Shown: piece by piece, positions 7,988-42,454 of the stretch
Layout of the letters: each line of letters begins with the position of its first letter
Numbering within the stretch: position 1 is the stretch's first letter
DNA from: Nitrospiraceae bacterium UBA6898
GTDB taxonomy: Bacteria; Nitrospirota; Thermodesulfovibrionia; Thermodesulfovibrionales; UBA6898
Direction: 5' to 3'
DNA: 42,454 nucleotides
Assembly (NCBI GenBank): GCA_002448975.1
Contig: DKBO01000079.1
Location: forward strand, 1 to 42,454
Made by a program: the position numbers and the translations under genes
Notes under the pieces: model-generated
What the model was told of the DNA's origin: nothing
Databases searched by the model: none
What the model saw: only the letters and a program-made list of their open reading frames with translations

Positions 7988-8112
7988 ACATCGGCCTTGA
8001 GCGGACCTCTCCGCTTGGGGTGACCCGGTCTGGTCACCGTGCCGATACCCCTATGTGAACACCCACCCCCGTGGGGTAGTGAGTCGGGTAGTTAGGGTAA
8101 GAAACATCTATA

Positions 8113-19379: not shown

Positions 19380-19400
19380 GTTGCTATTATCTGCAGCTGG

Positions 19401-20165
19401 TCAACGGATTAGCGCGGTTTCGAGTGAAGACAGGTATTCAGCAACGTCTTGCGGACCTCGGCCCATCGTTTCCAAAAAAGCAGTGCCGATAATCACTGCG
19501 TCGAGCCCCGCGATCACGGAAAGGGTTTTAATGTCTTCTGCGCTTCGAATTCCAAACCCTGCAGCAATCTTGGCTGAAGGGCATATCGACTTGGTGGTTT
19601 CGATACATTTCTTCAGCTCGGCATTGCTGAACAACTCTGCTCCCGTCAAGGGTGCTGACATCAAATATACGAGTGGCTTGGGTATGGCGAGCGAGAGTAT
19701 CTCCTGAACCCTCTGCTCGGACATCCACGGGCCGACACACTGCACAAGCTCCATGCCATGGCGGTTGGCTGTTTCAACATAGGGAGCCTCATTCTCCTCC
19801 GACCATTCTAGAATGAGCCCTTCCCAAGCACCCTTGTTATCAATAAGTACCTGCTCGAACGAAGATTTCTCAACCGTCCCCTTGTACAATACGCATAACG
19901 CCGGTGTGGTCGGCCGCCTTAGGGGTATGGCAGCCGTATACCGACAGGCCTCGATGTGGGCACGTTTTATGGTATTGTTTGCATGGTTGGAAAAGCCGTC
20001 GCTTGTGGGAATTGTCGTCTCAATAATAGATACGAAATTGGCCGCATCCAGCTGGGAGAGTATGTTCTCGAATTGAGAAGGATCCGGATAATTCGGCACA
20101 ACATAGATGATCAGTCCCTGTCGGCCTTCCTGGTTAGCCTTTTCTATCGCATTATGAAACTTCAT
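19401..20165 (-). CDS. divergent tryptophan synthase alpha (TrpA)-like TIM-barrel protein
   Basis: 254 aa. LIIYVVPNYPD and IIETTIPTSDG align by eye with TrpA AGDPD and ELGIPFSDP. AAGFGIRSAEDI and DAVIIGTAF match the TrpA phosphate-binding GFGIS and G-S-A loops. The second catalytic Asp region looks altered (SNHANN). Confidence 0.6.
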   Translation of the reverse strand: MKFHNAIEKANQEGRQGLIIYVVPNYPDPSQFENILSQLDAANFVSIIETTIPTSDGFSNHANNTIKRAHIEACRYTAAIPLRRPTTPALCVLYKGTVEKSSFEQVLIDNKGAWEGLILEWSEENEAPYVETANRHGMELVQCVGPWMSEQRVQEILSLAIPKPLVYLMSAPLTGAELFSNAELKKCIETTKSICPSAKIAAGFGIRSAEDIKTLSVIAGLDAVIIGTAFLETMGRGPQDVAEYLSSLETALIR

Positions 20166-21400
20166 GGCTTTTTCTTACCATTATACCCTGTCCATTCCTC
20201 AAATTGTTCGGCTGGGGTGATATTTTCCACGGACCACGATTCGACGAATTCCCTGGCCTTGCTCCACGTTGGAATAGGTTTCGGGAGATACCATGAGTGT
20301 GCAGATGGAACCGGGACGTCCCATTTGGGAGCTGTGCCATTTTTCCTCTGTCGGCCAAGAATCTCCTTGGAATACCGCCCCAGAGCCCACATGAAAGCTG
20401 CCGAGCATATCAACGAGATGGGATCTCCCAACTCAATCTTGACCCGCCCGTCCGTTCCCATGGGCAGCTGGAAGGGTTTCAGAAGACATTCAACAGTATC
20501 CACATAGCGGACGACCGTCAGCGGGTCAGCATATTTTTGGGCTTGTATTCTCGTCTCAAGGCACTGATTGAGAAACCCCGGGAGATGCGGGTTCCTGCTG
20601 CCAAAGAAAAAAACCGTATTGACTGCCGAGAAATGACCCTTTTGGTATAGATCCGCAATCAACGTACCGTATAACCCTACGTCCAGAATGAGCGTCTGGC
20701 CAAGGGCCAAAGTCCTCGTGAGACGTATTTGTCCATTACGGTATTCATGAAACAGCAGCGGCGATTCGCCTCTGTCGCGCAGAGGCCGCGTGTATACGAG
20801 AAAATTCAGCGGGATGGGATTCTTACCCCTCTGCAATGCACGCAGAGCAGGCCAGAAAAGCAGGGCATCCCTCAAGAAAAGCATCATGCTGTCAACCTTT
20901 CCCTTGCAGCCGGCAGCTAAAGCATCCTCCGCAAAGCCATGGAGAACGGGTAGCAGATAAGATGTGCTGTCCAGATAGCGTCGCACAATCTCAACGAGGA
21001 ATCGCCTCGTCGGAAGACATGCAACTCGGTGATCCTGGATTTGCGCAAAGAGCGCGCTCGAAACAACATAGCCTTCTGCATCGTCTTCCCGGGAGAGATT
21101 CCGATAGAGCAGCGAGAGAAGAGCGCCGGGGTCGGCAGACCCTGTATCCAGGCCGATGTAATTGATGCAGGCGTCCACCAATGATGCCAAGGATTCTGCC
21201 TGATCAGTCAGGGCAAGAAACTGTATCAGATCCGGCAGTCCAACCTCAACGTCCCGGATGATCAAAGCAGGGGGAAGCTGGTCTAAATCGACAGATGAAC
21301 CGCGGTAAAGCAACGGGATGCGCTCACCTGACAATTTTTCCATCTCCGGCAGAAAATCGAGCCGGGATATATCATCTAAAGGTGTACCTAAAATACTCAT
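20162..21400 (-). CDS. hypothetical protein, 412 aa, no motif recognised
   Basis: A long ORF with a 4-nt ATGA overlap with the TrpA-like gene. It is the first gene after the sigma-54 promoter candidate. It has no TM segments or signal peptide, and I could not assign a family by eye. Confidence 0.6.
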   Translation of the reverse strand: MSILGTPLDDISRLDFLPEMEKLSGERIPLLYRGSSVDLDQLPPALIIRDVEVGLPDLIQFLALTDQAESLASLVDACINYIGLDTGSADPGALLSLLYRNLSREDDAEGYVVSSALFAQIQDHRVACLPTRRFLVEIVRRYLDSTSYLLPVLHGFAEDALAAGCKGKVDSMMLFLRDALLFWPALRALQRGKNPIPLNFLVYTRPLRDRGESPLLFHEYRNGQIRLTRTLALGQTLILDVGLYGTLIADLYQKGHFSAVNTVFFFGSRNPHLPGFLNQCLETRIQAQKYADPLTVVRYVDTVECLLKPFQLPMGTDGRVKIELGDPISLICSAAFMWALGRYSKEILGRQRKNGTAPKWDVPVPSAHSWYLPKPIPTWSKAREFVESWSVENITPAEQFEEWTGYNGKKKP

Positions 21401-22551: not shown

Positions 22552-23442
22552 TCAACAAACGGATCTGCTTTGCGGGTGCCCCATAAAAATACCCCTCAGA
22601 GAGTTTCCTCCCAAAATGACAAGAATTTTCTGGAACGCCACCCCACTGACCATGGCCAGGCCGGCCAATACAAACAGTGCATCCTGAAGATGCTTGCTCG
22701 CCATTTCATGTAAGCCCGTCAACGGGAGAAGCAGAATTAAGAAGATGCCAGGCACCAGATGCCCCAGGCCCAGAACAACTAAAAGAGACAGGGGATTGCG
22801 GAGAATCGCCGTAGCCGCGCGTAAAGCATGGTTCGCCTGAGGGATCCGCACATAAATACCGTATACAAATAAATTCAGAACCAGACATACAATCCCTGTG
22901 ACAACCATTTGGGTCGAAAATGCCAATCCGCTCAGGCCCGACACGATTAGCAGCAGCCCGCAACCTCCAACAATGCTCGAGGTAAAAAAGCTAATTGGTG
23001 CAAGCGGCACATTCCAGGCTGTCACTGCCCTGGCACGATAGACCATGCAACCCTGGCTTATCACATAGACAAGGACAGCCCCGACAGAGAGCACATGCAG
23101 GAGGGGGTGTGGGAATAGCCAGTTCATCGATGCCAACAAGACAAATACTGTTCCCGACAAAACCTCTCGCGACATCCAGGAACTCTTGAGGTTGCCCAAA
23201 ATGTAAACGCCTCGCAGCGGCCTGCCAGCTTCAAAGGTCATGAAAAGGAATCCCAGGACAATAAGGAGAGGAGACAGCAACATGGATATCATGTCCTGGG
23301 GTTCGCTGAAAGCAATCCCTTCCCGCAAAGATATATCGAAAAAGCGCAGCACGTAAAAGCCCGAAGCCATGCCCCCCATAAAAAAATTAAAAACTGCGGG
23401 CCAGCCCCACACCCTGTATTTTACTGGTTGAATATGTTCCAT
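22552..23442 (-). CDS. NrfD/PsrC/DmsC-family integral membrane quinone-interacting subunit
   Basis: 296 aa and polytopic. It has WGWPAVFNFFMGGMASGFYV and EAGRPLRGVYILGNLKSSWMSREVLSG, which are hallmark NrfD-family blocks. Confidence 0.8.
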   Translation of the reverse strand: MEHIQPVKYRVWGWPAVFNFFMGGMASGFYVLRFFDISLREGIAFSEPQDMISMLLSPLLIVLGFLFMTFEAGRPLRGVYILGNLKSSWMSREVLSGTVFVLLASMNWLFPHPLLHVLSVGAVLVYVISQGCMVYRARAVTAWNVPLAPISFFTSSIVGGCGLLLIVSGLSGLAFSTQMVVTGIVCLVLNLFVYGIYVRIPQANHALRAATAILRNPLSLLVVLGLGHLVPGIFLILLLPLTGLHEMASKHLQDALFVLAGLAMVSGVAFQKILVILGGNSLRGIFMGHPQSRSVC

Positions 23443-23463
23443 GCTCTGTTCCCGCGAATCTGC

Positions 23464-24105
23464 TCAGTCCACAATGTAGTAAACTGAGGGATCAGTTCCT
23501 AATTCCTCCTGGAGTCTGGCTGTTTTTCCCTCGCGCAACAGTTGCGAAACCACACTGTCGGGATCGTCTAAATCGCCAAATCGCATGGCTTTGGCACTGC
23601 AAGAGATCACGCACTGGGGAGAGGCGTCAGCATCCCGACCGGGCCGGCACCCCTTTCTCATGCCATCGGCAATCTTCGGCAGACAGAAATTACATTTGGT
23701 TGCGACACCCACGCGGTCGGGGTTGGTGTCAGACCCACCCAATCCATGAACAATATTCTTCACTTCCAAGTCATATTTGTCGTGAAATATAATACTGCGG
23801 GCTTGATACGGGCAGGCCACAATGCAGTACCCGCACCCTACACAACGCTCATTTCTGATAGCGACTATTCCGTCGGATCTCCGGTGTGAAGCGGCAGTGG
23901 GGCAGACCTCAACACACGGGGCTTTGCCGCAGTGCATACAGCTTATCGGGATAAACGTTCTTATCCTTTCAGGAGTGGGCGATAATCCACAATCAAAAAC
24001 GCGGCGCCAACTATTGACGGGGACCCTGTTTGTCTGCTTGCAGACAATAGTGCAGGCCTTGCATCCGATACACTTTCTCAGGTCAATGACCATTCCCAAC
24101 CGCAA
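23464..24105 (-). CDS. four-cluster 4Fe-4S ferredoxin subunit (PsrB/NrfC/DmsB-type)
   Basis: 213 aa with cysteine groups CIGCKACTIVC, CMHCGKAPCVEVCP, CVGCGYCIVACP and CNFC. There is no twin-arginine leader. Confidence 0.85.
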   Translation of the reverse strand: MRLGMVIDLRKCIGCKACTIVCKQTNRVPVNSWRRVFDCGLSPTPERIRTFIPISCMHCGKAPCVEVCPTAASHRRSDGIVAIRNERCVGCGYCIVACPYQARSIIFHDKYDLEVKNIVHGLGGSDTNPDRVGVATKCNFCLPKIADGMRKGCRPGRDADASPQCVISCSAKAMRFGDLDDPDSVVSQLLREGKTARLQEELGTDPSVYYIVD

Positions 24106-24140
24106 CGTATGTCTCCCTTCACAAAATGCGGCACATCACT

Positions 24141-25781
24141 TCATCCCATGATGCCCTTAATATGATCGGCAAGCCTAATCGCAAGAGCGACGGCAGTAAG
24201 CACCGGATTCGCATAGCCACCCGTCGGGAATAAGGAGGGCCCCGCTATGTATAGATTTGAAGTGTCGTGGACGCGGCAATTTTCATCAACGACTCCTTTT
24301 TTGGGATCCGTGTGAATCCGTGTCGTACCCATGTGATGCCATCCTCCCACAATTTTCGGGATGTCGTTTTCGTCCCTGAGGTCGATCTGCAGGCTGCCAA
24401 GACCGGAGGAACGAACTTCCTCATCCATTATTTCCTGTGCCCTCATAACGCTGCGTATGTCTAAAGGGCTCAATTTCCAGTCCAATCTGACGCGCCTTCG
24501 ACCCAGGGCATCACATTCATCAGAAAGTGATACACGACTATCGGGGTTCGGAATCTGTTCAGTCATTTGATCAAGCTGGTACACGATGACCTTCTTTTGC
24601 TTATGTAAGAAACGCCCGCATCTGCGCAGTGCATTCTTCCGAACAGCTGTGGCTACTCCGCCGAGATTGGCAGCCACATCCTTCAACTGGCCGGTAAAAT
24701 CATCTGGAAGCCGTCCGTCAACCATTACTGACCGAAGAAGCCTGCGTGCCTTGGCCCCTTCAGACTGGTCGGCCTGAAGGGGCAGGTTATCCGGCCGCAC
24801 ACGGGGAAGAATGGAAACGCAATAGTTTGCCAATCTCTCATTTCGCAGCGTATTTTCAGATAGAGTCAATTTCGCCATTATGGGAACGGACTTTGTCTTA
24901 TGGATTCTGTACAGGGCAGTCTCATTATAAGTGTCAGGCCTGTCCGGAAGGTAAAAGCCTGAGTAGAAGTGAAGATGCTCCATAAAAAATCTGCCAACCA
25001 GATCATTTTGATTGCCGATTCCGTCACGCTGCTTCTTGTTCGAAAGTAATAGGAGTCGGGGGGTATCGATTCCTCCCAGCGCCAAAATGTAAAGTTTTGC
25101 TGAAACCCGGAATCTATTGCCCTCCAGGCAGGCCGCATGAATATGCGATACGGTCTGAGCAGCCGTATCCGTCTCCATTTCTACTGCATTGGCGAAAACG
25201 TAAGCACTGATATTCTCTGCCCTTCCAATTTCTTCTCTATAATCATTGAAAAAAGGGTCGCGTGGACCGAACTGGAATATCGCGGTCTTCATCCTTTCCG
25301 AAACAAAGGGAAGTTTGGGGGTTATCTCAGGGTCTTCCCAATCTTCGACCTCGTATGTATAGGGACCTATGCGGCAGACAGAGTGAGCGCGTTCATAAAA
25401 GGGATCAAGATAGGACTTGTCAAAAGGCCATCCGCTGTGCGGGAGCCAGTCACGCTCCTCGAAATCGATCGCGTCCAGGGGCCTCAGACGCACCCCGATA
25501 CGGTTATCCCCCAGTTCAACACTCCACCGATGACTGGACCCACCGAAAGCACAGCCCCGTGCGGTATCAAGCTCATAGTAAGGGAGGCCGACATTTTCTC
25601 CCCAGTAAAGCGACTGTGTTGCCCTGTCAGGTTCAAGTCCGCCGCTTTCCAGAAGACAGACCTTGAATTCTTTTCCTATGAACTCCCTGGCCACAGTAAT
25701 GCCTGCTATACCGGCACCTACGATGCAGACATCAGCCCGGATTGTCTTGTTTGACGGCAATGTACGCGCGTCGATAATCAT
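24141..25781 (-). CDS. GMC-family FAD-dependent oxidoreductase
   Basis: 546 aa. It has an N-terminal DVCIVGAGIAGITVA Rossmann motif and a C-terminal GGWHHMGTTRIHTDPKKGVVDENCRVHDTSNLYIAGPSLFPTGGYANPVLT (GMC_oxred_C-type active-site block). There is no signal peptide. Confidence 0.85.
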   Translation of the reverse strand: MIIDARTLPSNKTIRADVCIVGAGIAGITVAREFIGKEFKVCLLESGGLEPDRATQSLYWGENVGLPYYELDTARGCAFGGSSHRWSVELGDNRIGVRLRPLDAIDFEERDWLPHSGWPFDKSYLDPFYERAHSVCRIGPYTYEVEDWEDPEITPKLPFVSERMKTAIFQFGPRDPFFNDYREEIGRAENISAYVFANAVEMETDTAAQTVSHIHAACLEGNRFRVSAKLYILALGGIDTPRLLLLSNKKQRDGIGNQNDLVGRFFMEHLHFYSGFYLPDRPDTYNETALYRIHKTKSVPIMAKLTLSENTLRNERLANYCVSILPRVRPDNLPLQADQSEGAKARRLLRSVMVDGRLPDDFTGQLKDVAANLGGVATAVRKNALRRCGRFLHKQKKVIVYQLDQMTEQIPNPDSRVSLSDECDALGRRRVRLDWKLSPLDIRSVMRAQEIMDEEVRSSGLGSLQIDLRDENDIPKIVGGWHHMGTTRIHTDPKKGVVDENCRVHDTSNLYIAGPSLFPTGGYANPVLTAVALAIRLADHIKGIMG

Positions 25782-28398: not shown

Positions 28399-29715
28399 TT
28401 AGCTGTTTTTAACGGACTCCTCGGCGCTGTATGTTGTCGTCCACTTCAGAAGCGGCCTTACTGCCCCACCAATATATTTAGTCCAATCCCCACGCGCGGA
28501 ATCTGGATCCATATCATCGACAACGCGGAACGAGATAGCGTTGTCTTCGATAAAACGGGCGACGAATGGTTGCGGTGTCATCATGGCCGCATGGACAAAT
28601 ATTTCCCCATCAGATAGCAAATTGGCTGGAATCAGCGCGGCACTTATATAACGACCCGCCGGACGAGGACGCTGCCTCCACTCAGGATCGATATCTAAGG
28701 TTGTAAATATCTTCATACCTTCATCATTGTAAAGATTAAAATTGGGCACCAGCCAATTCCCCGGTTGAAGCACCTCATACTCCATTTCCAGACAGAACGA
28801 CTGGTTCGTAAGGACGGTATCAGCAACACTACCTTCTTCTGTTCGCATACGGACAGCGCAGAGGCGTACCGTTTGGTCACCTGGTGCATTGCCAAGTTCG
28901 TTCCATTCCCGGTGGGCTCTTTTTTGCGTTCCTTCGCTTAAATAACTGCTTACAACCGTAATCGGAGGACCGTCCATTACTATTTTCCCGTCTTTCAGTA
29001 AAATAATTCGTTCACATAATCGGCCTATGGAAAGTATGTTATGCGACACGAAGAGGACTGTTCTACCACTTCTCCCAATGTCCTGCATTTTATTGAGACA
29101 TTTCTTCTGAAAGCTCGCATCTCCCACCGCGAGCACCTCATCAACTATCAATATCTCCGGCTCTAAATGTGCCGCGACTGCGAAAGCTAATCTTAAATAC
29201 ATACCACTGGAATAATGCTTTACAGGGGTATCAATGAATTTTTCCACCTCGGCAAATGCCACAATCTCATCAAACTTTCTGCTGATTTCGCCTCTTGTCA
29301 TGCCAAGAATTGCACCGTTAAGGTATATATTTTCCCTTCCAGTCAACTCCTGATGAAATCCGGTACCCACTTCCAATAATGAACCCACCCGGCCCCGTAT
29401 TTCTGCAGATCCTTTTGTTGGCTCAGTAATTCGTGAAAGAATTTTTAATAAGGTGCTTTTGCCTGCTCCATTTCGTCCAATAATGCCTACTACCTCGCCC
29501 TGTTTGACATTAAAGGATACATCTTCAAGTGCCCATATGGATTGGTCTAATTCAGCAGCGCCTGCAGCATGTCCGTGCAATAATTTGCCTGCTTTTCTGA
29601 ATGGTGCAACAAAAGAATCAGCAATAGTATCACGCAGGGTTTTATAGCTTTCCTGTCTTCGACCTATATGATATTGCTTACTTAAATTTTCCACACGGAT
29701 TGCGATATTATTCAT
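28399..29715 (-). CDS. wzt: O-antigen/polysaccharide ABC exporter ATP-binding protein with a C-terminal extension
   Basis: 438 aa with Walker A GRNGAGKST, the LLEVGTGFHQELTGRENIYLNG block typical of Wzt/TagH, signature YSSGM, and Walker B ILIVDE. A C-terminal domain of about 190 aa sits where the Wzt carbohydrate-binding domain would be. Confidence 0.9.
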   Translation of the reverse strand: MNNIAIRVENLSKQYHIGRRQESYKTLRDTIADSFVAPFRKAGKLLHGHAAGAAELDQSIWALEDVSFNVKQGEVVGIIGRNGAGKSTLLKILSRITEPTKGSAEIRGRVGSLLEVGTGFHQELTGRENIYLNGAILGMTRGEISRKFDEIVAFAEVEKFIDTPVKHYSSGMYLRLAFAVAAHLEPEILIVDEVLAVGDASFQKKCLNKMQDIGRSGRTVLFVSHNILSIGRLCERIILLKDGKIVMDGPPITVVSSYLSEGTQKRAHREWNELGNAPGDQTVRLCAVRMRTEEGSVADTVLTNQSFCLEMEYEVLQPGNWLVPNFNLYNDEGMKIFTTLDIDPEWRQRPRPAGRYISAALIPANLLSDGEIFVHAAMMTPQPFVARFIEDNAISFRVVDDMDPDSARGDWTKYIGGAVRPLLKWTTTYSAEESVKNS

Positions 29716-29881
29716 TGGTCTTGGTTTATCCTCTCGGTTCTTTGTTTCACGTTTACGGAGAAAGGTACTTATTAAATGTCCCTGCCTCGGACGGCCGGCC
29801 GTCTCCGTTCACCACCCTTGTTTTGAACATCAGATCGAAGTCTATTCCCGGTCGGCTTCCTGTTAAGAAAGTAATTGCACG

Positions 29882-30175
29882 TTACGTCATAGCAGTCCCA
29901 GCACAATTATCTGGGTCATTAACGAGCCCCGTCAATGCTGCAACCTGACCCCAGGTCGATCTGGTTCTCATGCAGCGGCAAAGGCTCTGCCATGCACCAC
30001 TCCGTATACCGTTGTTGTCAAAACCTTTCACCGCAGCCCCGGGCTCGCAGACTGTCTCCTGGCCCTCCACGCACTTCAGACTCCAGTTCGTATAGGGAAT
30101 GGCGCTTGTCGCTGCAGCAGCCGCTACTGAACCGCTCACCGTCAAAAGAAAACTCAGCAGGCGAAGTACTTGCAA
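29882..30175 (-). CDS. hypothetical small secreted Cys-containing protein
   Basis: 97-aa ORF with a TTG start. It has a signal-peptide-like LRLLSFLLTVSGSVAAAAATSA and five Cys in the mature part. The RBS is weak, and an ATG-started ORF in another frame (30018-30203) overlaps its 5' end, so a frameshift or misassigned start is possible. Confidence 0.35.
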   Translation of the reverse strand: MQVLRLLSFLLTVSGSVAAAAATSAIPYTNWSLKCVEGQETVCEPGAAVKGFDNNGIRSGAWQSLCRCMRTRSTWGQVAALTGLVNDPDNCAGTAMT

Positions 30176-30277
30176 CCGAGGTAAACCTATTCATTATCAT
30201 CATTGTGCAGCTGTGCCATGTATTTTAGTTTTATTTACCGGGTACAATAAAAACACTATAGCACGCCGCCTCCGGCG

Positions 30278-31132
30278 CTAGACCACATCTGCGAAGGTCT
30301 TTTCCAGCCGTCTGAAATAGAACAATCCACTTACGAGTAATGCCAGCGCAACACCCGAAGACATCCATATCGTAGAACCGGGGGCGGTATCCGTCGCGAG
30401 GAGCGCCCACCGAAACCCCTCGACCACGCCAACCATGGGGTTAATCGCATAGATCGTTCTCCAGGGTTCGCTCAGGAGACTGCTCGGGTAGGCAATAGGC
30501 GTTGCAAAGAACCATAGTTGTGTTATGAAGGGAATGATATGCTGCACGTCTCTGAATTGTACGTTCATTGCGGAAAGCCACAAGGAAACTCCCAACGCCG
30601 TCACTAATGCGAGCAGCAGGAAGAAAGGCAAAAACATAACATTGATCGTCGGTACAATACCAAAATATAGCGTCATGCCAATAAGGGTAATAAGGGCCAG
30701 GACGAAGTCCAATATCCCGGAGAGAACATTTGCTATCGGGATAGCAAGACGGGGAAAATAGACTTTTTTGATCAGGTTTGAACTGCTGACAAGACTATTA
30801 GATGCCTTGCTCAATCCGTTCGCGAAAAAAGTCCAGGGCACAAGGGCAGCAAAACTGAAGATGGGATAGGGCACTCCGTCAGAGGGTATTTTTGCCAGAC
30901 GGCCAAAGAAGAGGCTGAAGACAACCATGGTCATGAAGGGTTGAATAATGGCCCAGGCAGCCCCCAGGACCGTCTGTTTGTAACGGATTTTGATATCTCG
31001 CCAGACGAGAAAATAAAGGAGTTCCTTGTATTCCCACAATTCTCTCAGTTTAAGGGAAACCCACCCACGGGAAGGTTCGATGCGGATTATCGGAATGTCG
31101 ATTTGAGCAGCGTTAACAGTATCTTTTTCCAT
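30278..31132 (-). CDS. wzm: O-antigen/polysaccharide ABC exporter permease (ABC-2 type)
   Basis: WRDIKIRYKQTVLGAAWAIIQPFMTMVVFSLFFG plus six hydrophobic segments. I chose the ATG at 31132 (MEKDTV...) because GAAAGG lies 5-6 nt upstream. The longer ORF to 31207 runs into a pseudogene fragment. Confidence 0.85.
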   Translation of the reverse strand: MEKDTVNAAQIDIPIIRIEPSRGWVSLKLRELWEYKELLYFLVWRDIKIRYKQTVLGAAWAIIQPFMTMVVFSLFFGRLAKIPSDGVPYPIFSFAALVPWTFFANGLSKASNSLVSSSNLIKKVYFPRLAIPIANVLSGILDFVLALITLIGMTLYFGIVPTINVMFLPFFLLLALVTALGVSLWLSAMNVQFRDVQHIIPFITQLWFFATPIAYPSSLLSEPWRTIYAINPMVGVVEGFRWALLATDTAPGSTIWMSSGVALALLVSGLFYFRRLEKTFADVV

Positions 31133-31204
31133 AGACCCTTTCTTTCTGTTGTGATGTCCTTTCGGATGTATGAGAATCCCGGCTTTGCTCTGCCCCAAGC
31201 CGGT

Positions 31205-31375
31205 CACACAGTCTGTTCTCAGGCAACTCCACGCGGCAAGTAAGCACCCGATCCTTTGCAGTGTTCCGTTTCAGATGGCGCCCCTCGGCCAAGCCCCTTG
31301 GAGGCAGCATTCGGAGTAAACTGTCTCGGAGTTCTGACACTGACCATAGATCATCACGACGCGCTTTCATGATCC
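31205..31375 (-). pseudogene. frameshifted C-terminal fragment of a SAF-type dehydrogenase, paralogous to 33202-33390
   Basis: The fragment translates as MIYGQCQNSETV, then a frameshift, then LLRMLPPRGLAEGRHLKRNTAKDRVLTCRVELPENRLCDRLGAEQ. The intact gene reads YMTYGQCENSDAVKGERLLPMGLAEGCRLKKDISRDHVLTYDDVDLPDNRLCDRLRAEQ. The DNA is alignable, for example gtcacacag(t/c)ctgtt and gagttctg(a/c)cactgaccatag(a/g)tcat. Confidence 0.75.
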
Positions 31376-31444: not shown

Positions 31445-32170
31445 TTATCTTGCACTGCAGGAATAAACTGCATCGAGTATTTCTTCCTGATTGCGGACGA
31501 AGATCCTCATGGCTGTCTCCTCGCCGAAGAGAGAGACTACTTCCCTGAATGCTTCCGAGAGTTGCGGTGGCCGCATCCGCACATCATGGCCATCAGATGC
31601 AACAAAATCAACAAGCCCCATTCTGAGCAATGCGTAACTGACATTTCGGATCTCTCTTCCGAACCCTCCCGTGATACTCTGGGCCGTTATCTGCGACATT
31701 GCACCGCATTCCCTCAATCTCCTCAGCAGTGCCGGACGCCTCGCGAGGAGAAGATGTCGTTCGGGATGCGTGATTATCGGGATGACCTTGTGCTGCCGAA
31801 GTTCAAGGATAAGGTCCTCCAATCGGGGCGGGAGTGCGAGGGAGGGGAATTCAAGAAGGAGATAGCCAGAGCCGTTCAGGGTCGGGATGTCTTCATTTTC
31901 TATCCTCTCCAGAAGATTATGACATATTCTTACGTCAGCGCCATACAGGAGCTGCAGACCGTTGGGAAGACTGCCTTTCAGTTTTTCACATGTCTCCTTG
32001 ATCACGGCCGTCCCATTCCGGTAGAGACCATCCAGAATATGCGGTGTTGCAAACATGTGGGTTATACCATCATCGATCGCCATCTTTGCCATGGCAACTG
32101 AATCCTGAACAGCCCCGGGGCCATCGTCTATCCCAGGCAGGATATGGCAGTGAATATCAATAAAGCTCAA
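31445..32170 (-). CDS. cpsB: CpsB/CapC-type PHP-domain protein-tyrosine phosphatase
   Basis: 241 aa with a TTG start overlapping the upstream TGA. It has IDIHCHILPGIDDGP, ATPH and ITHPERH metal-binding motifs. Confidence 0.85.
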   Translation of the reverse strand: MSFIDIHCHILPGIDDGPGAVQDSVAMAKMAIDDGITHMFATPHILDGLYRNGTAVIKETCEKLKGSLPNGLQLLYGADVRICHNLLERIENEDIPTLNGSGYLLLEFPSLALPPRLEDLILELRQHKVIPIITHPERHLLLARRPALLRRLRECGAMSQITAQSITGGFGREIRNVSYALLRMGLVDFVASDGHDVRMRPPQLSEAFREVVSLFGEETAMRIFVRNQEEILDAVYSCSAR

Positions 32171-32451
32171 AAGTGCCTCCCTGTTTGATATGAGCTGAGA
32201 TGCTTTGCGTCATAATCTGCTCCGGCTGTTCCAGGAGAGCACCTTTTTCGTCCCAGCCCTCTCTGATTTGCGTTGTTTACCGTAATCCTATCTCCGTTAT
32301 CCCGAAATTCCGCGTTCGTGACAGCGCAGCCGATTTTTCCCATAAACCGGAACCTATCGGTCACGATCAAGCTTTCAACCCCTGGACAGCTTTCTTCCTT
32401 CATGTCCCTCTGAACGCTTCTTTTCTGTTTCCCCTTATCCTCGAAGATCAT
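32167..32451 (-). CDS. hypothetical 94-aa protein
   Basis: Its start overlaps the upstream stop in ATGA, and its stop overlaps the CpsB TTG start in TTGA. No motif recognised. Confidence 0.4.
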   Translation of the reverse strand: MIFEDKGKQKRSVQRDMKEESCPGVESLIVTDRFRFMGKIGCAVTNAEFRDNGDRITVNNANQRGLGRKRCSPGTAGADYDAKHLSSYQTGRHF

Positions 32452-33227
32452 TGTGCAACAAAGACGGCATTCCTGTTTTCGAGGAATAATACGAAAAGGA
32501 TGAGAATACAGATCAGAATCACGAGCGGCAGAATTATCTTTGAAATCAGCTTTCTCGGTCCGGCCGGCATGACATAATGCACCCGCATCTGTGAAGCGTG
32601 TCTGAGCGGAGCTTTCTTTTTCATGCCCCCCGGCGGTTGAACTGAGACGGGTCTCTTCCGCATGAACTTTCTGTCATATTCCATTCTCTTTCCAGTATCT
32701 TTCAGAACACTATAAACCTCGTTGATTTTGCTCGTACAGCTGACCCAGTTGCCCCCATCACTACGGTGCCTGTCAGGGTGGTAGAGCATCATGAGGCTCT
32801 TCCAGCGATCATGGATCTGGTCAGCCGTTACATTATGGGGCAGCCCCAGGGTGAAATAGTAATCATTCTCGGGATTGAAATATACCCTGTCGAGAATCTT
32901 GTTCAGGTTATCAATCACATAACTCCGATCTATACTGCTCTGAGCCAGGAAACTCTTTGCCCCCGGCGCATCACCCAAGAGATCGATAAAGGCATCGAAA
33001 TTCCTGACAACCTTTATGCTGAATCGCTCCCAGGAAATACCACCCCTAACTTCCCCAATAAATTCAAGGGCATCCTGGTAGTTCACTTGCTTTTTCCCAT
33101 TGTCATGCCGGGATTTCATTCCTTCGTCTGGCCTGTCTTTGCAGATTCGGTCACAATAGACTGTCGGTGAGGCACCCTGTATGTTTCCCCTGAAGAAGAA
33201 CTTATCTCCGGCCAAAAAACAGTTCAT
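32448..33227 (-). CDS. J-domain (DnaJ-like) protein with a C-terminal transmembrane anchor
   Basis: The J-domain is DYYFTLGLPHNVTADQIHDRWKSLMMLYHPDRH...INEVYSVLKDTGKRMEYD, with the HPD tripeptide. The C-terminal hydrophobic helix is ISKIILPLVILICILILFVLFL. The start is uncertain: ATG at 33227 or 33119. The 33296 start would overlap the upstream gene by 95 nt. Confidence 0.7.
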   Translation of the reverse strand: MNCFLAGDKFFFRGNIQGASPTVYCDRICKDRPDEGMKSRHDNGKKQVNYQDALEFIGEVRGGISWERFSIKVVRNFDAFIDLLGDAPGAKSFLAQSSIDRSYVIDNLNKILDRVYFNPENDYYFTLGLPHNVTADQIHDRWKSLMMLYHPDRHRSDGGNWVSCTSKINEVYSVLKDTGKRMEYDRKFMRKRPVSVQPPGGMKKKAPLRHASQMRVHYVMPAGPRKLISKIILPLVILICILILFVLFLENRNAVFVAQ

Positions 33228-34503
33228 TCTGTTCCGCTCGCAGCCTGTCACACAGCCTGTTGTCCGGCAGATCCACATCATCATAGGTAAGCACATGATC
33301 CCGGGAAATATCTTTCTTTAGGCGGCATCCTTCAGCAAGCCCCATGGGGAGCAGTCTCTCGCCCTTAACCGCATCCGAGTTCTCGCACTGACCATAGGTC
33401 ATATAGTAGCCCATGCCATCAAGCACCTGCCCGGCCTTTAGATCTATCTTCGCGGTAGCCACAACATCGACTAACGGTTTGCCAAGCGGTGCGATGGCTG
33501 CGTCGTGGAAGAGCGCAGCCCTGGCAATAGTATTGTGTACCTCAAAGTGGCAGAGATGATAGGGGGTATAGAAACAATAAAGTGGGCCTTCGCCCAGCTT
33601 GTAGAGGTTCAGGTAGTGTTTCTGCATCGGGTGATCATGCGTACCAAGAACAAATACCCCCGGCCCGGGCTCAGCGCCGACTACATAGTCAACGACCCCG
33701 GGGCCTGACAAAAGATCCTCGAGAGGATACCAGGAAACCGCTTCCTTGATGGCAGTTCCTGCCGGCACCGTCGGTCCGTGCATGCCCCGCTTCGCCACCC
33801 TCATTCCCGTAGCATTCGCCACGATAGCCTGTTCAAAGGAGATCTTGGTTCCGTCGGCAAAAGACGTGACCATGTGCGCTTTCTGTCCCCACTTTCGTGC
33901 AAACCCCTCCTGGGTTGTCGGGTTGCGATAGGGGTCCTGAAGACCCTTTATGTTTCCGCACAAAACAGGGCGAACGCCGATCCCTTTGACAAAACGGTAC
34001 AGGTTCATGATTACGCCGGGTTGATCTCCGTCTGCATTCGTCAGAACAACCCCCGCCTTATCAGCATACACCTTCAATACAGGGCCTATTGTTCCGTCAA
34101 GTTCGGCATTCATCATAACGACATGCTTTCCGTGCTCGATCGCTTTCAGCACTACTTCGGCTCCAAACTCAATAGCACCCGTCACTTCGATAACAGCGTC
34201 TATACCGTCGGCTTTGCAGAGAGCCAATGCATCTTCAGTTACCGCGTAATCACCTTTGCTTATCGCCTCCTCCATCTGGGCTACCGTTTCAACGGTTTGT
34301 GTTCTTTCGATGCCCGCCTCGGCATATGCCCGGCGAGCACCTTCGAGATGCCGGTTGGCGATAGCTACCAATTTCATCCCCGGCACATAATTGCATATCT
34401 GTAACGCTATCCCCCTCCCCATAAATCCGGCTCCGATCATGCCGACACGGACAGGGGTCCCGGCTGCATGAAGCTTCTGCAATGCTGTATCAAGAATGAT
34501 CAT
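33202..34503 (-). CDS. NAD(P)-dependent oxidoreductase with a C-terminal SAF-like domain (predicted homoserine-dehydrogenase-like family)
   Basis: 433 aa. It has an N-terminal VRVGMIGAGFMGRGIA Rossmann motif and a C-terminal KAGQVLDGMGYYMTYGQ block. Confidence 0.65.
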   Translation of the reverse strand: MIILDTALQKLHAAGTPVRVGMIGAGFMGRGIALQICNYVPGMKLVAIANRHLEGARRAYAEAGIERTQTVETVAQMEEAISKGDYAVTEDALALCKADGIDAVIEVTGAIEFGAEVVLKAIEHGKHVVMMNAELDGTIGPVLKVYADKAGVVLTNADGDQPGVIMNLYRFVKGIGVRPVLCGNIKGLQDPYRNPTTQEGFARKWGQKAHMVTSFADGTKISFEQAIVANATGMRVAKRGMHGPTVPAGTAIKEAVSWYPLEDLLSGPGVVDYVVGAEPGPGVFVLGTHDHPMQKHYLNLYKLGEGPLYCFYTPYHLCHFEVHNTIARAALFHDAAIAPLGKPLVDVVATAKIDLKAGQVLDGMGYYMTYGQCENSDAVKGERLLPMGLAEGCRLKKDISRDHVLTYDDVDLPDNRLCDRLRAEQNELFFGRR

Positions 34504-38451: not shown

Positions 38452-39918
38452 TCACTCACGCTGCTTGGCAACCACTGGACAGTATTCTGTCAGCACATCC
38501 GAGTTTAACGCTTGGCTTTGCTCTGTGGGATACAGATCCTTCAGCCTCTTATAAAAGGCTTTCCGAGAAATACCCAGCACCCTGCATGCCTTCGACTTGT
38601 TGCCATTACATACGTGGAGCGCATCACGCAAGGCCTGCATCTCCAGATCCTTAAGCGTTCGTATGGAACTCTGCATCGCTTTCTGTTTTCTGACGCTCAT
38701 AAATTCTTCTGGCAGCGCACTCGGCGTGATCACTTTCCCCTGTGAAAGCACAACAGCCCTTTCAATAATGTTCTTGAGCTGCCGAACATTTCCCGGCCAG
38801 GGATACTCCTGGAATAACCTGAGGACGTCATTAGTAACCGTAAGTTCTTTCTTCTCACGTATGCAGAATTCATTGATGAATGAAGAGGCAAGCAACGGAA
38901 TATCATCCTTCCGTTCCCTGAGCGAAGGGACCTTTATATCGATCACATTGATCCGATAGAAGAGGTCTTCCCGGAACCTGCCTTCGGACACCCACTTTTT
39001 GAGATCACGATTCGTGGAAGAAATGAGCCTGAAATTTACCTTGATCTTTTTATTGCTCCCGAGACGCTCGATCTCACGCTCCTGCAGCACCCTGAGCAGT
39101 TTAGCCTGAAGCGAAAGCTCGAGTTCACCGATCTCGTCAAGGAAGATTATCCCTTCTGCAGCCTCTTCGAACTTCCCGGTTCTTCTTGTAAAGGCTCCGG
39201 TAAAAGCGCCCTTCTCATATCCAAACAGCTCCGCCTCGATGAGCTCTTTCGGCATGGCGGCACAGTTTACCGCTACAAAGGGCCGCTCTTTTCTCGAGCT
39301 GCTATTATGCAGTGCACGGGCGATCAACTCCTTTCCCGTGCCTGTCTCCCCCCAAATCAGGACACTGGTCAACGATTCCTTGATCGACTCGATCGTCTCA
39401 AATATTCTCCTGATCTCCGGGTTATTACCGATGAGACGATGGCGGTATCCTTCGTCCAGAAGCCTCAGCTTCAGGGATTCGACTTCCCGTTTCAGGCGCC
39501 TCTGCTCAATAGCACGAACAAGGATTCCCTTAAGGTTCATATAATCCGGCGGCTTGATAAAATAATAAAAAGCACCACGTGTCATCGCAGAAACCGCCGA
39601 TTCGACGGTTCCATAAGCAGTCAGGAAGACAACAGGAATGTCAGGATAATTTTCGGAAATGTGCTCAAAGAGATCCATTCCGTCCTTCCCCGGCATTTTC
39701 AGGTCTGTGATCACGGCATCCACATCAACCTGTTGGATAATCGCAATCGCCTTATCGACGTTATCGGATGACGTAACGTGATAACCCTCTTCCGTGAGTA
39801 TGGCCGAGAGCACACGAAGCGCATTCGGCTCATCATCGACAACGAGGACTTTTCCTTTATGACTATTTCCGTTTTTCAAAATTACCTTCGCCCACCGACA
39901 TAATCTCTCCGAACGCAT
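38452..39918 (-). CDS. sigma-54-dependent Fis-family response regulator (NtrC-type enhancer-binding protein)
   Basis: The REC domain is VLVVDDEPN...DAVITDLKMPGKDGMDL. The AAA+ domain has GETGTGKELIARALH, ELFGYEKGAFTGA (GAFTGA loop) and FREDLFYRINV. The C-terminal HTH is NKSKACRVLGISRKAFYKRLK. The start may instead be the TTG about 39 nt downstream. Confidence 0.9.
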   Translation of the reverse strand: MRSERLCRWAKVILKNGNSHKGKVLVVDDEPNALRVLSAILTEEGYHVTSSDNVDKAIAIIQQVDVDAVITDLKMPGKDGMDLFEHISENYPDIPVVFLTAYGTVESAVSAMTRGAFYYFIKPPDYMNLKGILVRAIEQRRLKREVESLKLRLLDEGYRHRLIGNNPEIRRIFETIESIKESLTSVLIWGETGTGKELIARALHNSSSRKERPFVAVNCAAMPKELIEAELFGYEKGAFTGAFTRRTGKFEEAAEGIIFLDEIGELELSLQAKLLRVLQEREIERLGSNKKIKVNFRLISSTNRDLKKWVSEGRFREDLFYRINVIDIKVPSLRERKDDIPLLASSFINEFCIREKKELTVTNDVLRLFQEYPWPGNVRQLKNIIERAVVLSQGKVITPSALPEEFMSVRKQKAMQSSIRTLKDLEMQALRDALHVCNGNKSKACRVLGISRKAFYKRLKDLYPTEQSQALNSDVLTEYCPVVAKQRE

Positions 39919-40046: not shown

Positions 40047-42128
40047 TCAGTGGAAATAACTTATAACGACGCTCTCCGATGCGTTTTCGGCTGAGGGGTT
40101 ACTATAATTAGGAACGATCTTCTGTATTGCCGCCATCACTTCGTCTGCGCGGTATTCACGAGCTATGCGCTCAAAATCGTCAATACTCTGATACAGAACC
40201 TCGGAATCGGGGATTTCAGGAATTGCCATCATAAGCTTGCTGTGAAACGTGGGAAGCTTCTTCTCTGTTATATCAAAAAGTTCTTCATACATCTTTTCCC
40301 CGGGCCTCAGACCGGTATATATGATCTTGATCTCCTTATGAGGAATGAAACCGGAGAGGCGGATAAAATTTTCAGCCAGGTCGGCGATCCTGACCTGCTC
40401 TCCCATGTCGAGCACGAAGAGCTCACCTCCGTTCCCCGATGCAGCAGCTATGAGAACCAGCTGTACCGCCTCAGGGATGAGCATGAAGAACCGCTTGATC
40501 TCAGGGTGGGTCACGGTCAGCGGACCGCCCCTCTTCATCTGTTCCTTGAATATCGGTATCACGCTCCCGTTGGTTCCAAGGACATTCCCGAACCTCACCG
40601 TCGAGAATTTCGTCCGGCAGTCGGAATTCTTTTTTATGGTGAGAAACTCGGCAATCCGCTTTGTCGCACCCATTATGCTTGTCGGGTTTACGGCCTTGTC
40701 CGTTGAGATGAGAATGAAATTTTCCGCACAATGCCGGGATGCGGTATCGATGAGATTTTTCGTTCCAAAAACATTGTTCTTGACCGCCTCAACGGCATTT
40801 GTCTCCATAAGCGGGACATGTTTGTAGGCAGCCGCATGAAAGATGATCTGGGGTGCATGTCTGGTAAAGAGTTGTTCCAGAAATGCCAGATCCTGTACGT
40901 CTCCAATGATGGTTGTGATAGTCGTTTCACGCTCTTCAGTTCTCAGTTCGAGATCTATCTCATACGTACTGTTCTCATACCGGTCGCAGAGCATAAGATG
41001 GGATGGATTATATTTGATAATTTGCCTGCAGAGTTCCGACCCGATCGAGCCTCCTGCTCCCGTGACCATGACAGATTTCCCCCGGATGAATTCCCTCACC
41101 GAAGTAATGTCTGTTTTCACCGGTTCCCGCTGGAGGAGGTCTTCGAGAGAAATGGGTTCCATATGGGCAACACCATACTGTTTCTGGAGAAAAGAGAGCA
41201 ACTTTTCCTCGGTGATGGCGCCCAGCTTCACGAGCTTGGCACCGAGCCTTCCACCCTCCTTTTTCTGGAGCGTCAGGGCCTCATTGATCTGTGCCTCCGT
41301 CACAAGGCTCGCTTCGACCAAACGCTGTCCGAGCTTTGCCGCAACCGAGATGCTGCCATCAAGAAGATCGACTATCTCGGGAAGTTTCTTGATAGGTATG
41401 TTAAAAGGCTTGGAGATCTCATAGATCTCTCTGATCGATTTCTGCAAGGCATTTAATGAGGAGATCAGGATCTCGTCAGGTTTGTGCTTCTCGATGATGC
41501 GGGAGAGCATATCGCTCGTCCCGAGAATGGGAATATCATGTATTGTCAGCCCTTTTGTGTAGGAATGGTCATCAACAAAACCGATAGGTTCATAGGCGTG
41601 CTCCCTTTTGTTTTTCATCTCTCTTACGATCATCTCTCCGGCATCAGCTGCGCCGATCACCAGGATCCTTTTCCGGGGTATTTCCAGAGACATGTACTCC
41701 CTGAAGATTCGCATGAGAAGCCTGCTCCCCCCGGATATAAGAATAAGCAGCAGTAAATCCAGGACGTAGATAGAGAGCGGATAAGTCGCGTCATTAAAGG
41801 CATAGCGAACGACCAGGAAAAACATGCAGCTGCCGAGCGTTGAAGACTTGATGATCTTCACCAGGTCGGTGATGCTCGCATAACGCCAGAGACCTTTATA
41901 GAGACCTCCCTGCAGAAAAAAGATAATGCGAAAGCAGAGAAGAAAGGGGAGATACTGCAAGAACAGTCCCCGGTAATCTGCGTTAATATTCGCGTCGAAA
42001 CGTATGAGGAAGGCCAGGTAATTGGCAATAACCACATGGAAGAGAAAAACAAGCATGACAAAAATGCGCCGGTACTGCACAATTACCTTTTTGAGGGATT
42101 CGTATATGAGGGATGAGAATCGGCTCAT
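40047..42128 (-). CDS. membrane-anchored CapD/PglF/WbpM-type NDP-sugar 4,6-dehydratase with an inserted MshEN-like segment
   Basis: 693 aa. It has four N-terminal TM helices, an RILVIGAADAG Rossmann-like domain, and a catalytic SDR domain with VMVTGAGGSIGSELCRQI, YKHVP and STDKAVNPTSIMGATKR. About 60 extra residues lie between DLLDG and LEDLLQREPV. Confidence 0.85.
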   Translation of the reverse strand: MSRFSSLIYESLKKVIVQYRRIFVMLVFLFHVVIANYLAFLIRFDANINADYRGLFLQYLPFLLCFRIIFFLQGGLYKGLWRYASITDLVKIIKSSTLGSCMFFLVVRYAFNDATYPLSIYVLDLLLLILISGGSRLLMRIFREYMSLEIPRKRILVIGAADAGEMIVREMKNKREHAYEPIGFVDDHSYTKGLTIHDIPILGTSDMLSRIIEKHKPDEILISSLNALQKSIREIYEISKPFNIPIKKLPEIVDLLDGSISVAAKLGQRLVEASLVTEAQINEALTLQKKEGGRLGAKLVKLGAITEEKLLSFLQKQYGVAHMEPISLEDLLQREPVKTDITSVREFIRGKSVMVTGAGGSIGSELCRQIIKYNPSHLMLCDRYENSTYEIDLELRTEERETTITTIIGDVQDLAFLEQLFTRHAPQIIFHAAAYKHVPLMETNAVEAVKNNVFGTKNLIDTASRHCAENFILISTDKAVNPTSIMGATKRIAEFLTIKKNSDCRTKFSTVRFGNVLGTNGSVIPIFKEQMKRGGPLTVTHPEIKRFFMLIPEAVQLVLIAAASGNGGELFVLDMGEQVRIADLAENFIRLSGFIPHKEIKIIYTGLRPGEKMYEELFDITEKKLPTFHSKLMMAIPEIPDSEVLYQSIDDFERIAREYRADEVMAAIQKIVPNYSNPSAENASESVVISYFH
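41178..41336 (-). other. tandem MshEN-type (c-di-GMP-binding) 24-residue motif pair within the CapD-like gene
   Basis: Residues 265-317 read KLGQRLVEASLVTEAQINEALTLQ, then KKEGG, then RLGAKLVKLGAITEEKLLSFLQKQ. That is two copies of RLGxx(L/V/I)(L/V/I)xxG(L/V/I)(L/V/I)xxxxLxxxLxxQ separated by a 5-residue spacer. Confidence 0.65.
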
Positions 42129-42156: not shown

Positions 42157-42454
42157 TCACCCGAGCCTGGCCGCCTTCGCGACCGTTTTCAGGATCAGGG
42201 ATACGTCCGTGACCAGCGAATGGTTCTCGACATATTCGAGCGACAGCCTGATCTTGTCCGGCAGGATCCTCTTGCGGTATTCCTCTTCCCAGTTCGGAGA
42301 ACGTGCAAGAACTCCCTCTTCAGCGGCATACCGGAGAGATGCCGGATCTGTGATCCCGGGACGAACGCTGAGCAGTTTTCTGTATTCCGGTGCATATAAT
42401 TCCACGTATTCCCTTACTTCAGGCCTCGGTCCGACCAGGCTCATATCACCCTTC
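42157..42454 (-). CDS. undecaprenyl-phosphate sugar-phosphate transferase (PglC/WbaP family), C-terminal part; the N-terminus lies beyond the window
   Basis: (GD)MSLVGPRPEVREYVELY...VRPGITDPASL...DKIRLSLEYVENHSLVTDVSLILKTV is the Bac_transf catalytic C-terminus. The ORF is open to the window edge. Confidence 0.85.
   Translation of the reverse strand, partial: KGDMSLVGPRPEVREYVELYAPEYRKLLSVRPGITDPASLRYAAEEGVLARSPNWEEEYRKRILPDKIRLSLEYVENHSLVTDVSLILKTVAKAARLG

Follow-up and report, generated by a model that had tools for sequence, protein, structure and literature searches.

A putative c-di-GMP-binding MshEN_N module in the hinge of a PglF-type sugar-nucleotide dehydratase of Nitrospirota

The stretch of DNA considered here (42,454 nucleotides of contig DKBO01000079.1 from Nitrospiraceae bacterium UBA6898, referred to below as the window) encodes on its minus strand, at positions 40047-42128, a 693-residue protein that is predicted to be a membrane-anchored UDP-N-acetylglucosamine (UDP-GlcNAc) 4,6-dehydratase of the PglF/WbpM/CapD type. 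At the hinge between its two cytoplasmic domains lies a module of the MshEN_N type, through which pilus and secretion ATPases such as PilB and MshE bind cyclic di-GMP (c-di-GMP), a second messenger. We consider it probable, at about 0.68, that this protein is a dehydratase gated by c-di-GMP through a hinge insert derived from PilB. The sensor is a known and widespread one that appears here to be wired to a new class of output, rather than something categorically new.

Identity and conservation of the inserted module

In an alignment of the family the segment corresponds to a clean 58-column gap in 26 insert-less representatives, located between '...LLDGxxSV' and 'xxxxPISLEDLLxREPV', and the module is therefore placed precisely at the hinge that joins the Rossmann-like N-terminal domain to the catalytic short-chain dehydrogenase/reductase (SDR) domain. 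The first-pass annotation of this DNA, made from the letters alone, had described about 60 extra residues at this point, containing two 24-residue MshEN motifs with a 5-residue spacer, and its coordinates for the quoted peptide are right, the minus strand encoding it exactly there. The parts of the insert are as follows.

41166-41342, minus strand: inserted segment, residues 263-321, absent from insert-less family members (gap in the family alignment)
41265-41336, minus strand: MshEN motif I, KLGQRLVEASLVTEAQINEALTLQ, residues 265-288, aligning with residues 9-32 of Vibrio cholerae MshE (VcMshE)
41250-41264, minus strand: five-residue spacer KKEGG, in which E291, G292 and G293 are unusually well conserved in the orthologue alignment
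41178-41249, minus strand: MshEN motif II, RLGAKLVKLGAITEEKLLSFLQKQ, residues 294-317, aligning with VcMshE residues 38-61

The tandem motifs satisfy [RK]LGxx(L/V/I)(L/V/I)xx[GAS](L/V/I)(L/V/I)xxxxLxxxLxxQ with a 5-residue separation, and the departures listed in the first-pass annotation (in motif I, K for R at position 1 and S for G at position 10; in motif II, A at position 11) are all present. When the window is translated in six frames (84,904 amino acids), the relaxed 24-residue motif of Wang et al. (2016), [RKPN]hGxxhhxx[GAS]hhxxxxhxxxhxx[QNKRYWST], is matched just twice, where residue shuffles give a chance expectation of 0.08, and both real matches stand in tandem with the canonical spacing. 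We note that the DNA of the insert has a G+C content of 56%, compared with 49% for the gene and 48% for the window, although this may simply reflect a composition rich in Gly, Ala, Leu and Lys.

The NCBIfam model NF053729 ('cyclic di-GMP-binding domain-containing protein, MshE-related'), which is 53 positions long and has a cut-off of 38 bits, matches residues 265-317 along its entire length (1-53/53; E = 3.8e-16, 58.6 bits), and it is also passed by all six of the diverse orthologues tested (46.7-63.5 bits). When the segment was compared with all PDB sequences using phmmer, the significant matches were exclusively MshEN-type domains, among them Thermus thermophilus PilF (E = 6.6e-14), Myxococcus xanthus PilB (MxPilB; 4.5e-10), VcMshE (5HTL; 1e-9) and Geobacter PilB, and the insert aligned in register with MshE residues 8-64. 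The AlphaFold2 (AF2) model of the full-length protein, built on an 85-sequence alignment and having a mean predicted local distance difference test score (pLDDT) of 82.8, has helices in the insert at 262-272, 278-291, 295-301 and 307-316, with low-confidence linkers on both sides. For a predicted model of the insert alone (pLDDT 70) the best PDB match by Foldseek is the c-di-GMP-bound MshE structure 5htl, with a root-mean-square deviation of 1.0 Å over 54 columns, 48% identity and a probability of 1.00, and the next are the c-di-GMP-bound PilF GSPII-B structures 8pdk and 8pfa. The four-helix fold that the first-pass annotation had suggested modelling for is thus the one predicted.

A Pfam scan, suggested at the same time, gave no match to PF05157 (T2SSE_N, now named MshEN) with either the whole protein or the isolated insert. 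This model covers PilB residues 57-143, corresponding to helix 4 and the MshEN_C subdomain, and it has been reported to miss the first three helices (Wang et al., 2016; PMC5013675); the null result is therefore not counted against an MshEN_N identity. Motif II is separated from the ISLEDLL element by only about 8 residues, leaving no counterpart of PilB 57-143, and this absence together with the lack of a PF05157 match indicates, at the level of sequence and predicted structure, that the insert is an MshEN_N-only module and not a full MshEN. The original identification as MshEN is accordingly to be narrowed: the MshEN_N part stands on NF053729, the PDB matches and the predicted fold, whereas a full MshEN does not, MshEN_C being absent. 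The Pfam scan of the 693-residue protein found no T2SSE ATPase domain (PF00437) either, and the protein lies outside the MshE/PilB/GspE family of secretion ATPases, with which it has the sensor module alone in common.

Conservation was analysed in 120 orthologues, with contact positions given in MshE numbering. Mean column entropy is 1.00 bit in the insert; it is lower in the SDR domain (0.75) and higher in the Rossmann-like domain (1.18) and the transmembrane region (1.40). The equivalents of G11, Q32 and G40 (window G267, Q288 and G296) are invariant, and L29, R38, L39 (window L295), G47, L54 and L58 have their majority residue in 91-119 of the 120 sequences each: L29 (window L285) and L58 (window L314) in 119, G47 (window G303) in 115, and R38 (window R294) in 111 with K in the other 9, the substitutes at L54 being conservative only. 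Position 9 is K (91) or R (29), and at position 25 either I or V is found. In each motif, positions 3 and 4, which make the guanine-specific backbone contacts, are kept along with both Leu triads, for both halves of the ligand. Xanthomonas XpsE does not bind c-di-GMP, by virtue of changes at G11, L29, R38, G40, L54, L58 and Q61 (PMC5013675), and across the orthologues these positions are kept, Q61 excepted. Conservation of the motifs among insert-bearing orthologues, on which the first-pass annotation had made its proposal depend, is therefore found for the contact residues in more than 100 sequences.

The departures from the consensus have parallels in characterised proteins. Lys at motif position 1 occurs in PilF GSPII-B, CtPilB (the PilB of C. 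thermophilum) and DgPilB2, which are the tightest binders, and the K167R change in PilF weakened c-di-GMP binding (PMC11731258). MxPilB, which binds c-di-GMP (PMC11656802), carries Asn at the loop-Gly position of motif I in the phmmer alignment, as do most of the orthologues. Since the same residues are found in these binders, K at position 1 and N or S at position 10 are probably harmless on present knowledge. Nor does MshEN_C seem to be required for binding, since isolated VcMshEN_N (residues 1-62) binds c-di-GMP with a dissociation constant of 0.35 µM (PMC5013675).

The host enzyme has the following layout.

40047-42128, minus strand: dehydratase gene, 693 aa, with four transmembrane helices, Rossmann-like N-domain, MshEN_N insert and PglF-type SDR domain (open reading frame (ORF) list, Pfam, AF2)
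41691-42071, minus strand: four predicted transmembrane helices, about residues 20-146 (hydrophobic AF2 helices 20-43, 50-73, 86-110 and 118-146; basic residues precede the first)
41364-41681, minus strand: cytoplasmic Rossmann-like domain of the CoA_binding_3 type (PF13727, NCBIfam, AF2)
41118-41153, minus strand: ISLEDLLQREPV element, start of the catalytic domain (in phmmer the first aligned pair with 5bju is query residue 325 and chain residue 3)
40224-41072, minus strand: SDR catalytic domain, Polysacc_synt_2 (Pfam; phmmer and Foldseek to PglF)
41040-41063, minus strand: NAD(P) motif TGAGGSIG, residues 356-363 (GxGGxxG site)
40695-40703, minus strand: catalytic T476-D477-K478, aligned with PglF T395-D396-K397
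40659-40673, minus strand: M486, replacing the SDR Tyr, in MGATK (aligned with PglF M405)

Pfam assigns residues 80-231 to CoA_binding_3 (PF13727) and residues 353-635 to Polysacc_synt_2 (PF02719; E = 1.9e-114), and the NCBIfam model for the EPS_sugtrans/WcaJ N-terminal region covers residues 30-262. The Rossmann-like domain is of a type common to this dehydratase and the large phosphoglycosyl transferases of the WbaP/WcaJ type, and shows a beta-alpha pattern at 153-248 in the AF2 model. The closest solved structure is that of Campylobacter jejuni PglF (phmmer E = 6e-87), which serves as UDP-GlcNAc 4,6-dehydratase in bacillosamine synthesis, with a Foldseek TM-score of 0.93 and 45% identity to 5bju/5bjw, and the PglF crystal construct begins with 'ISIEDLL', the very element that directly follows the insert in the 693-residue protein. 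T476-D477-K478 and M486 are unchanged across the 85 aligned family sequences; with these residues and the Polysacc_synt_2 match in place, the earlier assignment of the host as a CapD/PglF-type sugar dehydratase holds. Because the number of transmembrane helices is even, we infer that the module and the rest of the protein are cytoplasmic.

Distribution and probable origin of the insert

All of the 120 best database matches, which are at least 59% identical and come from metagenome-assembled genomes (MAGs) of Nitrospirota/Thermodesulfovibrionales, contain the insert. An exhaustive HMMER search of 1.84 billion representatives returned 8,833 family members at E < 1e-30, and among the best 150 of these the insert is present in only 3, the match to each of the other 147 being split in two precisely where the insert would lie. 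When GTDB species genomes were scanned with patterns derived from the insert itself, and hence with a bias towards insert-like sequences, it was found in a dehydratase context in about 44 loci, nearly all of them from Nitrospirota; three loci of anammox Planctomycetota, from Ca. Scalindua, Scalinduaceae and Ca. Anammoxibacter (L037, L039 and L053), also bear it. The anammox copies are on contigs of up to 315 kb and are nested within the Nitrospirota clade.

Separate neighbour-joining trees of the SDR part and the N-terminal part each place the insert-bearing sequences in a single clade with no insert-less member inside it, which suggests that the insert was gained once and then passed on by vertical descent, with some transfer. 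Separate gains in different lineages were considered and rejected, given monophyly in both of these trees of the flanking domains. An artefact of mis-assembly or gene fusion was similarly rejected, since an identical protein is present on contigs of independent assemblies, and it is further countered by more than 120 insert-bearing clusters at 90% identity.

The other genome-scan matches are Nitrospirota pilus ATPases of the PilB type (L043-L080, for example L044:11-1819). The Nitrospirota PilB N-terminus, exemplified by that of Thermodesulfovibrio PilB, MAAKLGQLLLAANLVTEAQLKEALNLQKKEGGRLGSKLVKLGYLTEEKLVSFLSKQYGVP, is identical to the family consensus of the insert at 44 of 53 positions (up to 83%), compared with about 25 of 53 for MshE, MxPilB and GmPilB, and this makes the PilB N-terminus of the lineage itself the probable donor. 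The KKEGG spacer is also present in Nitrospirota PilB N-termini. With PilB as donor, a common c-di-GMP threshold for pilus assembly and glycan initiation would be implied.

Another protein with an internal MshEN_N cassette is encoded at L060:7365-8360 (MAG CAZXCW01, also L026), in an ORF that is cut by the end of the contig. The scanned sequence of 319 aa, starting from the Met at ORF position 14, has an N-terminal FHA domain at 27-89 and a match to NF053729 at 205-257 (64.8 bits), the region between the FHA domain and the cassette being without assignment; this cassette and the dehydratase insert share 67% identity. Sequence comparison suggests that in Nitrospirota such a transplantation has happened more than once. 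The wider proposal, that the PilB sensor was copied as a 53-residue cassette both into the hinge of the first nucleotide-sugar enzyme and into the FHA protein, with c-di-GMP gating glycan supply post-translationally, is one to which we would give slightly less than an even chance.

Predicted gating by c-di-GMP and alternative explanations

The dehydratase gene adjoins genes for an aminotransferase and a small phosphoglycosyl transferase, and from these neighbours the enzyme is predicted to catalyse, as the first-pass annotation had also held, the first committed sugar-modifying step of the glycan pathway, supplying an initiating sugar derived from a 4-keto-6-deoxy-N-acetylhexosamine (of the bacillosamine, N-acetylquinovosamine or N-acetylfucosamine type). 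A Nitrospirota ancestor would have gained the 53-residue four-helix MshEN_N module in the hinge, most likely as a copy of the N-terminus of its own type IV pilus PilB. The module keeps the residues for one molecule of c-di-GMP as in MshE, PilB and PilF, and from these retained residues we infer that c-di-GMP is most likely a cytoplasmic ligand of the enzyme, with an affinity that would be sub-micromolar. In PilF, the first turn of helix 1 unfolds on ligand binding (PMC11731258), and the same turn would be expected to unfold here. In both predicted models helix 1 is extended and apo-like, and its first turn runs directly into the tether to the Rossmann-like domain; since the turn expected to unfold is this tether, binding should change the geometry of the hinge, and through it the orientation of the catalytic domain, the oligomeric state or the access to the membrane-bound transferase. 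The outcome would be a gated supply of sugar to the adjacent phosphoglycosyl transferase, which would start glycan assembly on undecaprenyl phosphate. Activation at high c-di-GMP seems more likely than inhibition, by analogy with NfrB and with synthase-type exopolysaccharide systems.

Several observations weigh against this reading. The loop Gly of motif I (the G18 position) varies, being N in 66, G in 24, K in 16 and R in 6 of the orthologues, while the window has S there, and at the end of motif II the Gln (the Q61 position) is kept in only 74 of 120; in the Anammoxibacter copy (L053) the spacer is shortened and Q32 and Q61 are both lost, so that the motif can evidently decay. The absent MshEN_C (T2SSE_N1) subdomain contributes a ligand contact in MshE and PilF, and in the linker region flanking the insert the AF2 model has a pLDDT below 50 at 257-260. 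Genes for GGDEF, EAL, HD-GYP or PilZ proteins were looked for among all the window's major ORFs and in the 10 kb upstream, with none found, and an Rfam search at gathering thresholds of the window and of L081, a contig that encodes the identical protein, detected neither a c-di-GMP riboswitch nor any further RNA family. Finally, c-di-GMP left the in vitro ATPase rates of CtPilB and Clostridium perfringens PilB2 unchanged, and occupancy of an MshEN domain therefore need not alter catalysis by the enzyme attached to it.

This insensitivity of the two ATPases also favours an explanation in which the module binds c-di-GMP with no change in catalysis and is instead a ligand-dependent docking or stability element, either recruiting the enzyme to the phosphoglycosyl transferase and aminotransferase or to the pilus machinery, or protecting it from proteolysis as for PgaD and the MxPilB N-domain. 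In its favour, c-di-GMP thermally stabilises the MshEN domain of MxPilB, and many motif mutants have lower PilB levels (PMC11656802); the N-terminal domains of type II secretion ATPases and of type IV pilus ATPases are modules known to bind partners, an example being the PilB-PilZ complex 7lkn; and natural fusions of a phosphoglycosyl transferase to the dehydratase (see below) suggest tight coupling. However, a location exactly at the hinge within one enzyme favours intramolecular coupling, the near identity to the PilB module may merely reflect its origin, and the partners named are candidates only, so that we regard a pure docking or stability role as unlikely. It is improbable that the insert is a non-binding helical spacer of MshEN_N origin, acting as a structural linker or dimerisation element in the manner of Xanthomonas XpsE. 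Degenerate non-binding MshEN domains are common (PMC5013675), and the variable loop-Gly and Q61 positions, the decay in L053 and the missing MshEN_C would all suit such a role, but the positions lost in XpsE are, Q61 apart, invariant or nearly so in the 120 sequences, the deviations at positions 1 (K) and 10 (N or S) are found in proven binders, and a mere linker is unlikely to be held at an entropy of 1.0 bit, near that of the catalytic domain. VcMshEN also binds cyclic GMP-AMP (cGAMP), more weakly (PMC5013675), and the module might thus sense 3'3'-cGAMP or another cyclic dinucleotide; given that the guanine-specific backbone contacts and both Leu triads are retained, and that c-di-GMP is preferred by all characterised MshEN domains, we consider this very improbable.

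The c-di-GMP-gated dehydratase that we favour can be set beside several known systems. VcMshE (5HTL), MxPilB, CtPilB and T. thermophilus PilF GSPII-B have the same 53-residue tandem-motif four-helix module, in register, and the insert shares 47-49% identity with those of MshE and MxPilB and as much as 83% with that of Nitrospirota PilB. In those proteins the module is N-terminal and is accompanied by MshEN_C and a T2SSE ATPase, with a secretion or pilus motor as the output, whereas here it is internal, lacks both companions, and has a sugar-nucleotide dehydratase as its output. Escherichia coli NfrB, a GT2 exopolysaccharide synthase with a C-terminal MshEN that is activated by c-di-GMP, is likewise a receptor fused to an enzyme of glycan biosynthesis, and the insert weakly matches the NCBIfam model of its MshEN region (NF008411). 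NfrB is, however, a polymerising synthase with a full MshEN, while the dehydratase would act upstream on the nucleotide-sugar precursor and has MshEN_N only. The chain-length-determinant tyrosine kinases of the Methylobacillus EpsG type (MshEN_N plus AAA_31) are also MshEN_N-only and are tied to a Wzy-type polysaccharide pathway, and the insert has a weak match to TIGR03029 (EpsG); CheA proteins with an internal MshEN_N demonstrate that the module can sit between other domains, as it does in the dehydratase. Both MshEN_N-only architectures appear in Wang et al. (2016), Supplementary Table 4 (PMC5013675), although their partner domains differ from ours and neither carries a sugar-modifying enzyme. 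C. jejuni PglF, Pseudomonas aeruginosa WbpM and Staphylococcus aureus CapD provide the layout of the host, with the same four transmembrane helices, Rossmann-like and SDR domains, T-D-K and Met residues, and aminotransferase and phosphoglycosyl transferase neighbours, but the nearest insert-less representatives of this type join the two cytoplasmic domains with no insert.

The catalogue of MshEN partners in Wang et al. (2016) comprises ATPase, GT2, REC, HD-GYP, CheA, CheX, cyclase, kinase, Peptidase_M23, TrxB and AAA_31 but no sugar-nucleotide enzyme, and the architecture described here is missing from its Supplementary Table 4 as well (PMC5013675). Among open-access full texts we found no published account of an MshEN-dehydratase architecture (an absence that is not proof), no paper linking MshEN or c-di-GMP binding to PglF/WbpM/CapD-type enzymes, and no report of a second-messenger-binding element for enzymes of this type; the annotations with which the 120 orthologues were deposited nowhere mention c-di-GMP. 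A review of how c-di-GMP acts post-translationally on exopolysaccharide synthesis deals with synthase complexes only (BcsA, Alg44/Alg8, PelD and PgaCD; PMC8461298), the NfrB glycosyltransferase being a further direct target outside it.

If the gated dehydratase is real, no earlier case would exist of a sugar-nucleotide dehydratase under direct second-messenger control, and it would also be the first instance of post-translational c-di-GMP control in a glycan pathway that is not synthase-dependent (Wzy or ABC transporter type), with a c-di-GMP sensor on the glycan enzyme tuned like that of the pilus motor. Control at the committed nucleotide-sugar step would be a regulatory logic unlike the control of a synthase, and would bring lipid-carrier-dependent pathways under c-di-GMP control, in which a block at the first step spares undecaprenyl phosphate from sequestration. 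It would also be a compact natural case of a sensor cassette moved into an enzyme hinge, of use to protein engineering, and a handle on the c-di-GMP physiology of uncultured Nitrospirota and anammox bacteria, whose aggregates and biofilms matter ecologically and in wastewater treatment. We note too that MshEN_N-only modules escape architecture surveys based on Pfam. The support is bioinformatic and the clade is confined to uncultured lineages, but the prediction is specific and cheaply testable, with more than 100 orthologues on hand for in vitro work.

The surrounding glycan locus

The entire window is a single minus-strand glycan locus, encoding glycosyltransferases, a second DegT aminotransferase, FdtA- and RmlC-type isomerases, a Wzm/Wzt exporter, a Wzy_C-family protein, a CpsB phosphatase and a UDP-GlcNAc 2-epimerase. 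The genes on either side of the dehydratase gene are the following.

42157-42454, minus strand: small phosphoglycosyl transferase (Bac_transf, PglC-like), C-terminal part, upstream and cut by the end of the window (ORF list)
38452-39918, minus strand: sigma-54-dependent response regulator (Response_reg, Sigma54_activat and HTH_8; Pfam), directly downstream

On L081 the order is NusG paralogue, DegT aminotransferase, 202-aa PglC-like transferase, dehydratase and sigma-54 response regulator; the block of aminotransferase, phosphoglycosyl transferase and dehydratase, which stands at the head of the large glycan locus, is conserved with its surroundings in about 40 related loci, and the response regulator adjoins the dehydratase in about 20. 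In two proteins, P0122 (897 aa) and P0026 (935 aa), the MshEN_N-bearing dehydratase carries a Bac_transf transferase fused to its N-terminus, an arrangement that supports a physical coupling of sugar supply to glycan initiation. A PAS histidine kinase and a second sigma-54 response regulator (L081:4548-6975), together with the NusG paralogue (7486-8022), precede the operon just outside the window. The response regulators, the PAS kinase and the NusG paralogue around the locus suggest that it is under layered transcriptional control, and some sigma-54 activators (FleQ, VpsR and Nla24) are themselves c-di-GMP receptors.

The export functions are of mixed character. In the stretches 6617-7987, 28399-31207 and 31445-33296 (minus strand) are encoded a Wzm/Wzt ABC exporter with Wzt_C and a protein of the Wzy_C/O-antigen-ligase family, as well as a PHP-type CpsB/CapC tyrosine phosphatase and a DnaJ-domain protein. 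The Wzy_C/O-antigen-ligase family also includes O-oligosaccharyltransferases. With hallmarks of several export routes present, the final glycan could be an O-antigen, a capsule or a protein-linked glycan.

Among the glycosyltransferase genes at 22552-25781 (minus strand) is a redox trio consisting of a GMC-family oxidoreductase (24141-25781), a 4Fe-4S dicluster protein (23464-24105) and an NrfD/DmsC-like membrane anchor (22552-23442), an unusual and apparently quinone-linked redox module within a glycan locus. ORFs resembling TrpA (tryptophan synthase alpha) and PRAI (TrpF) are also found inside the polysaccharide cluster (18672-20165, minus strand), adjoined by a 412-aa ORF (20162-21400) with no Pfam match. 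A protein of 1213 aa (14384-18025, minus strand) combines LamG/concanavalin-like, GDSL lipase/acylhydrolase and He_PIG Ig domains with InlB B-repeats, and it may be a secreted or surface glycan-modifying protein.

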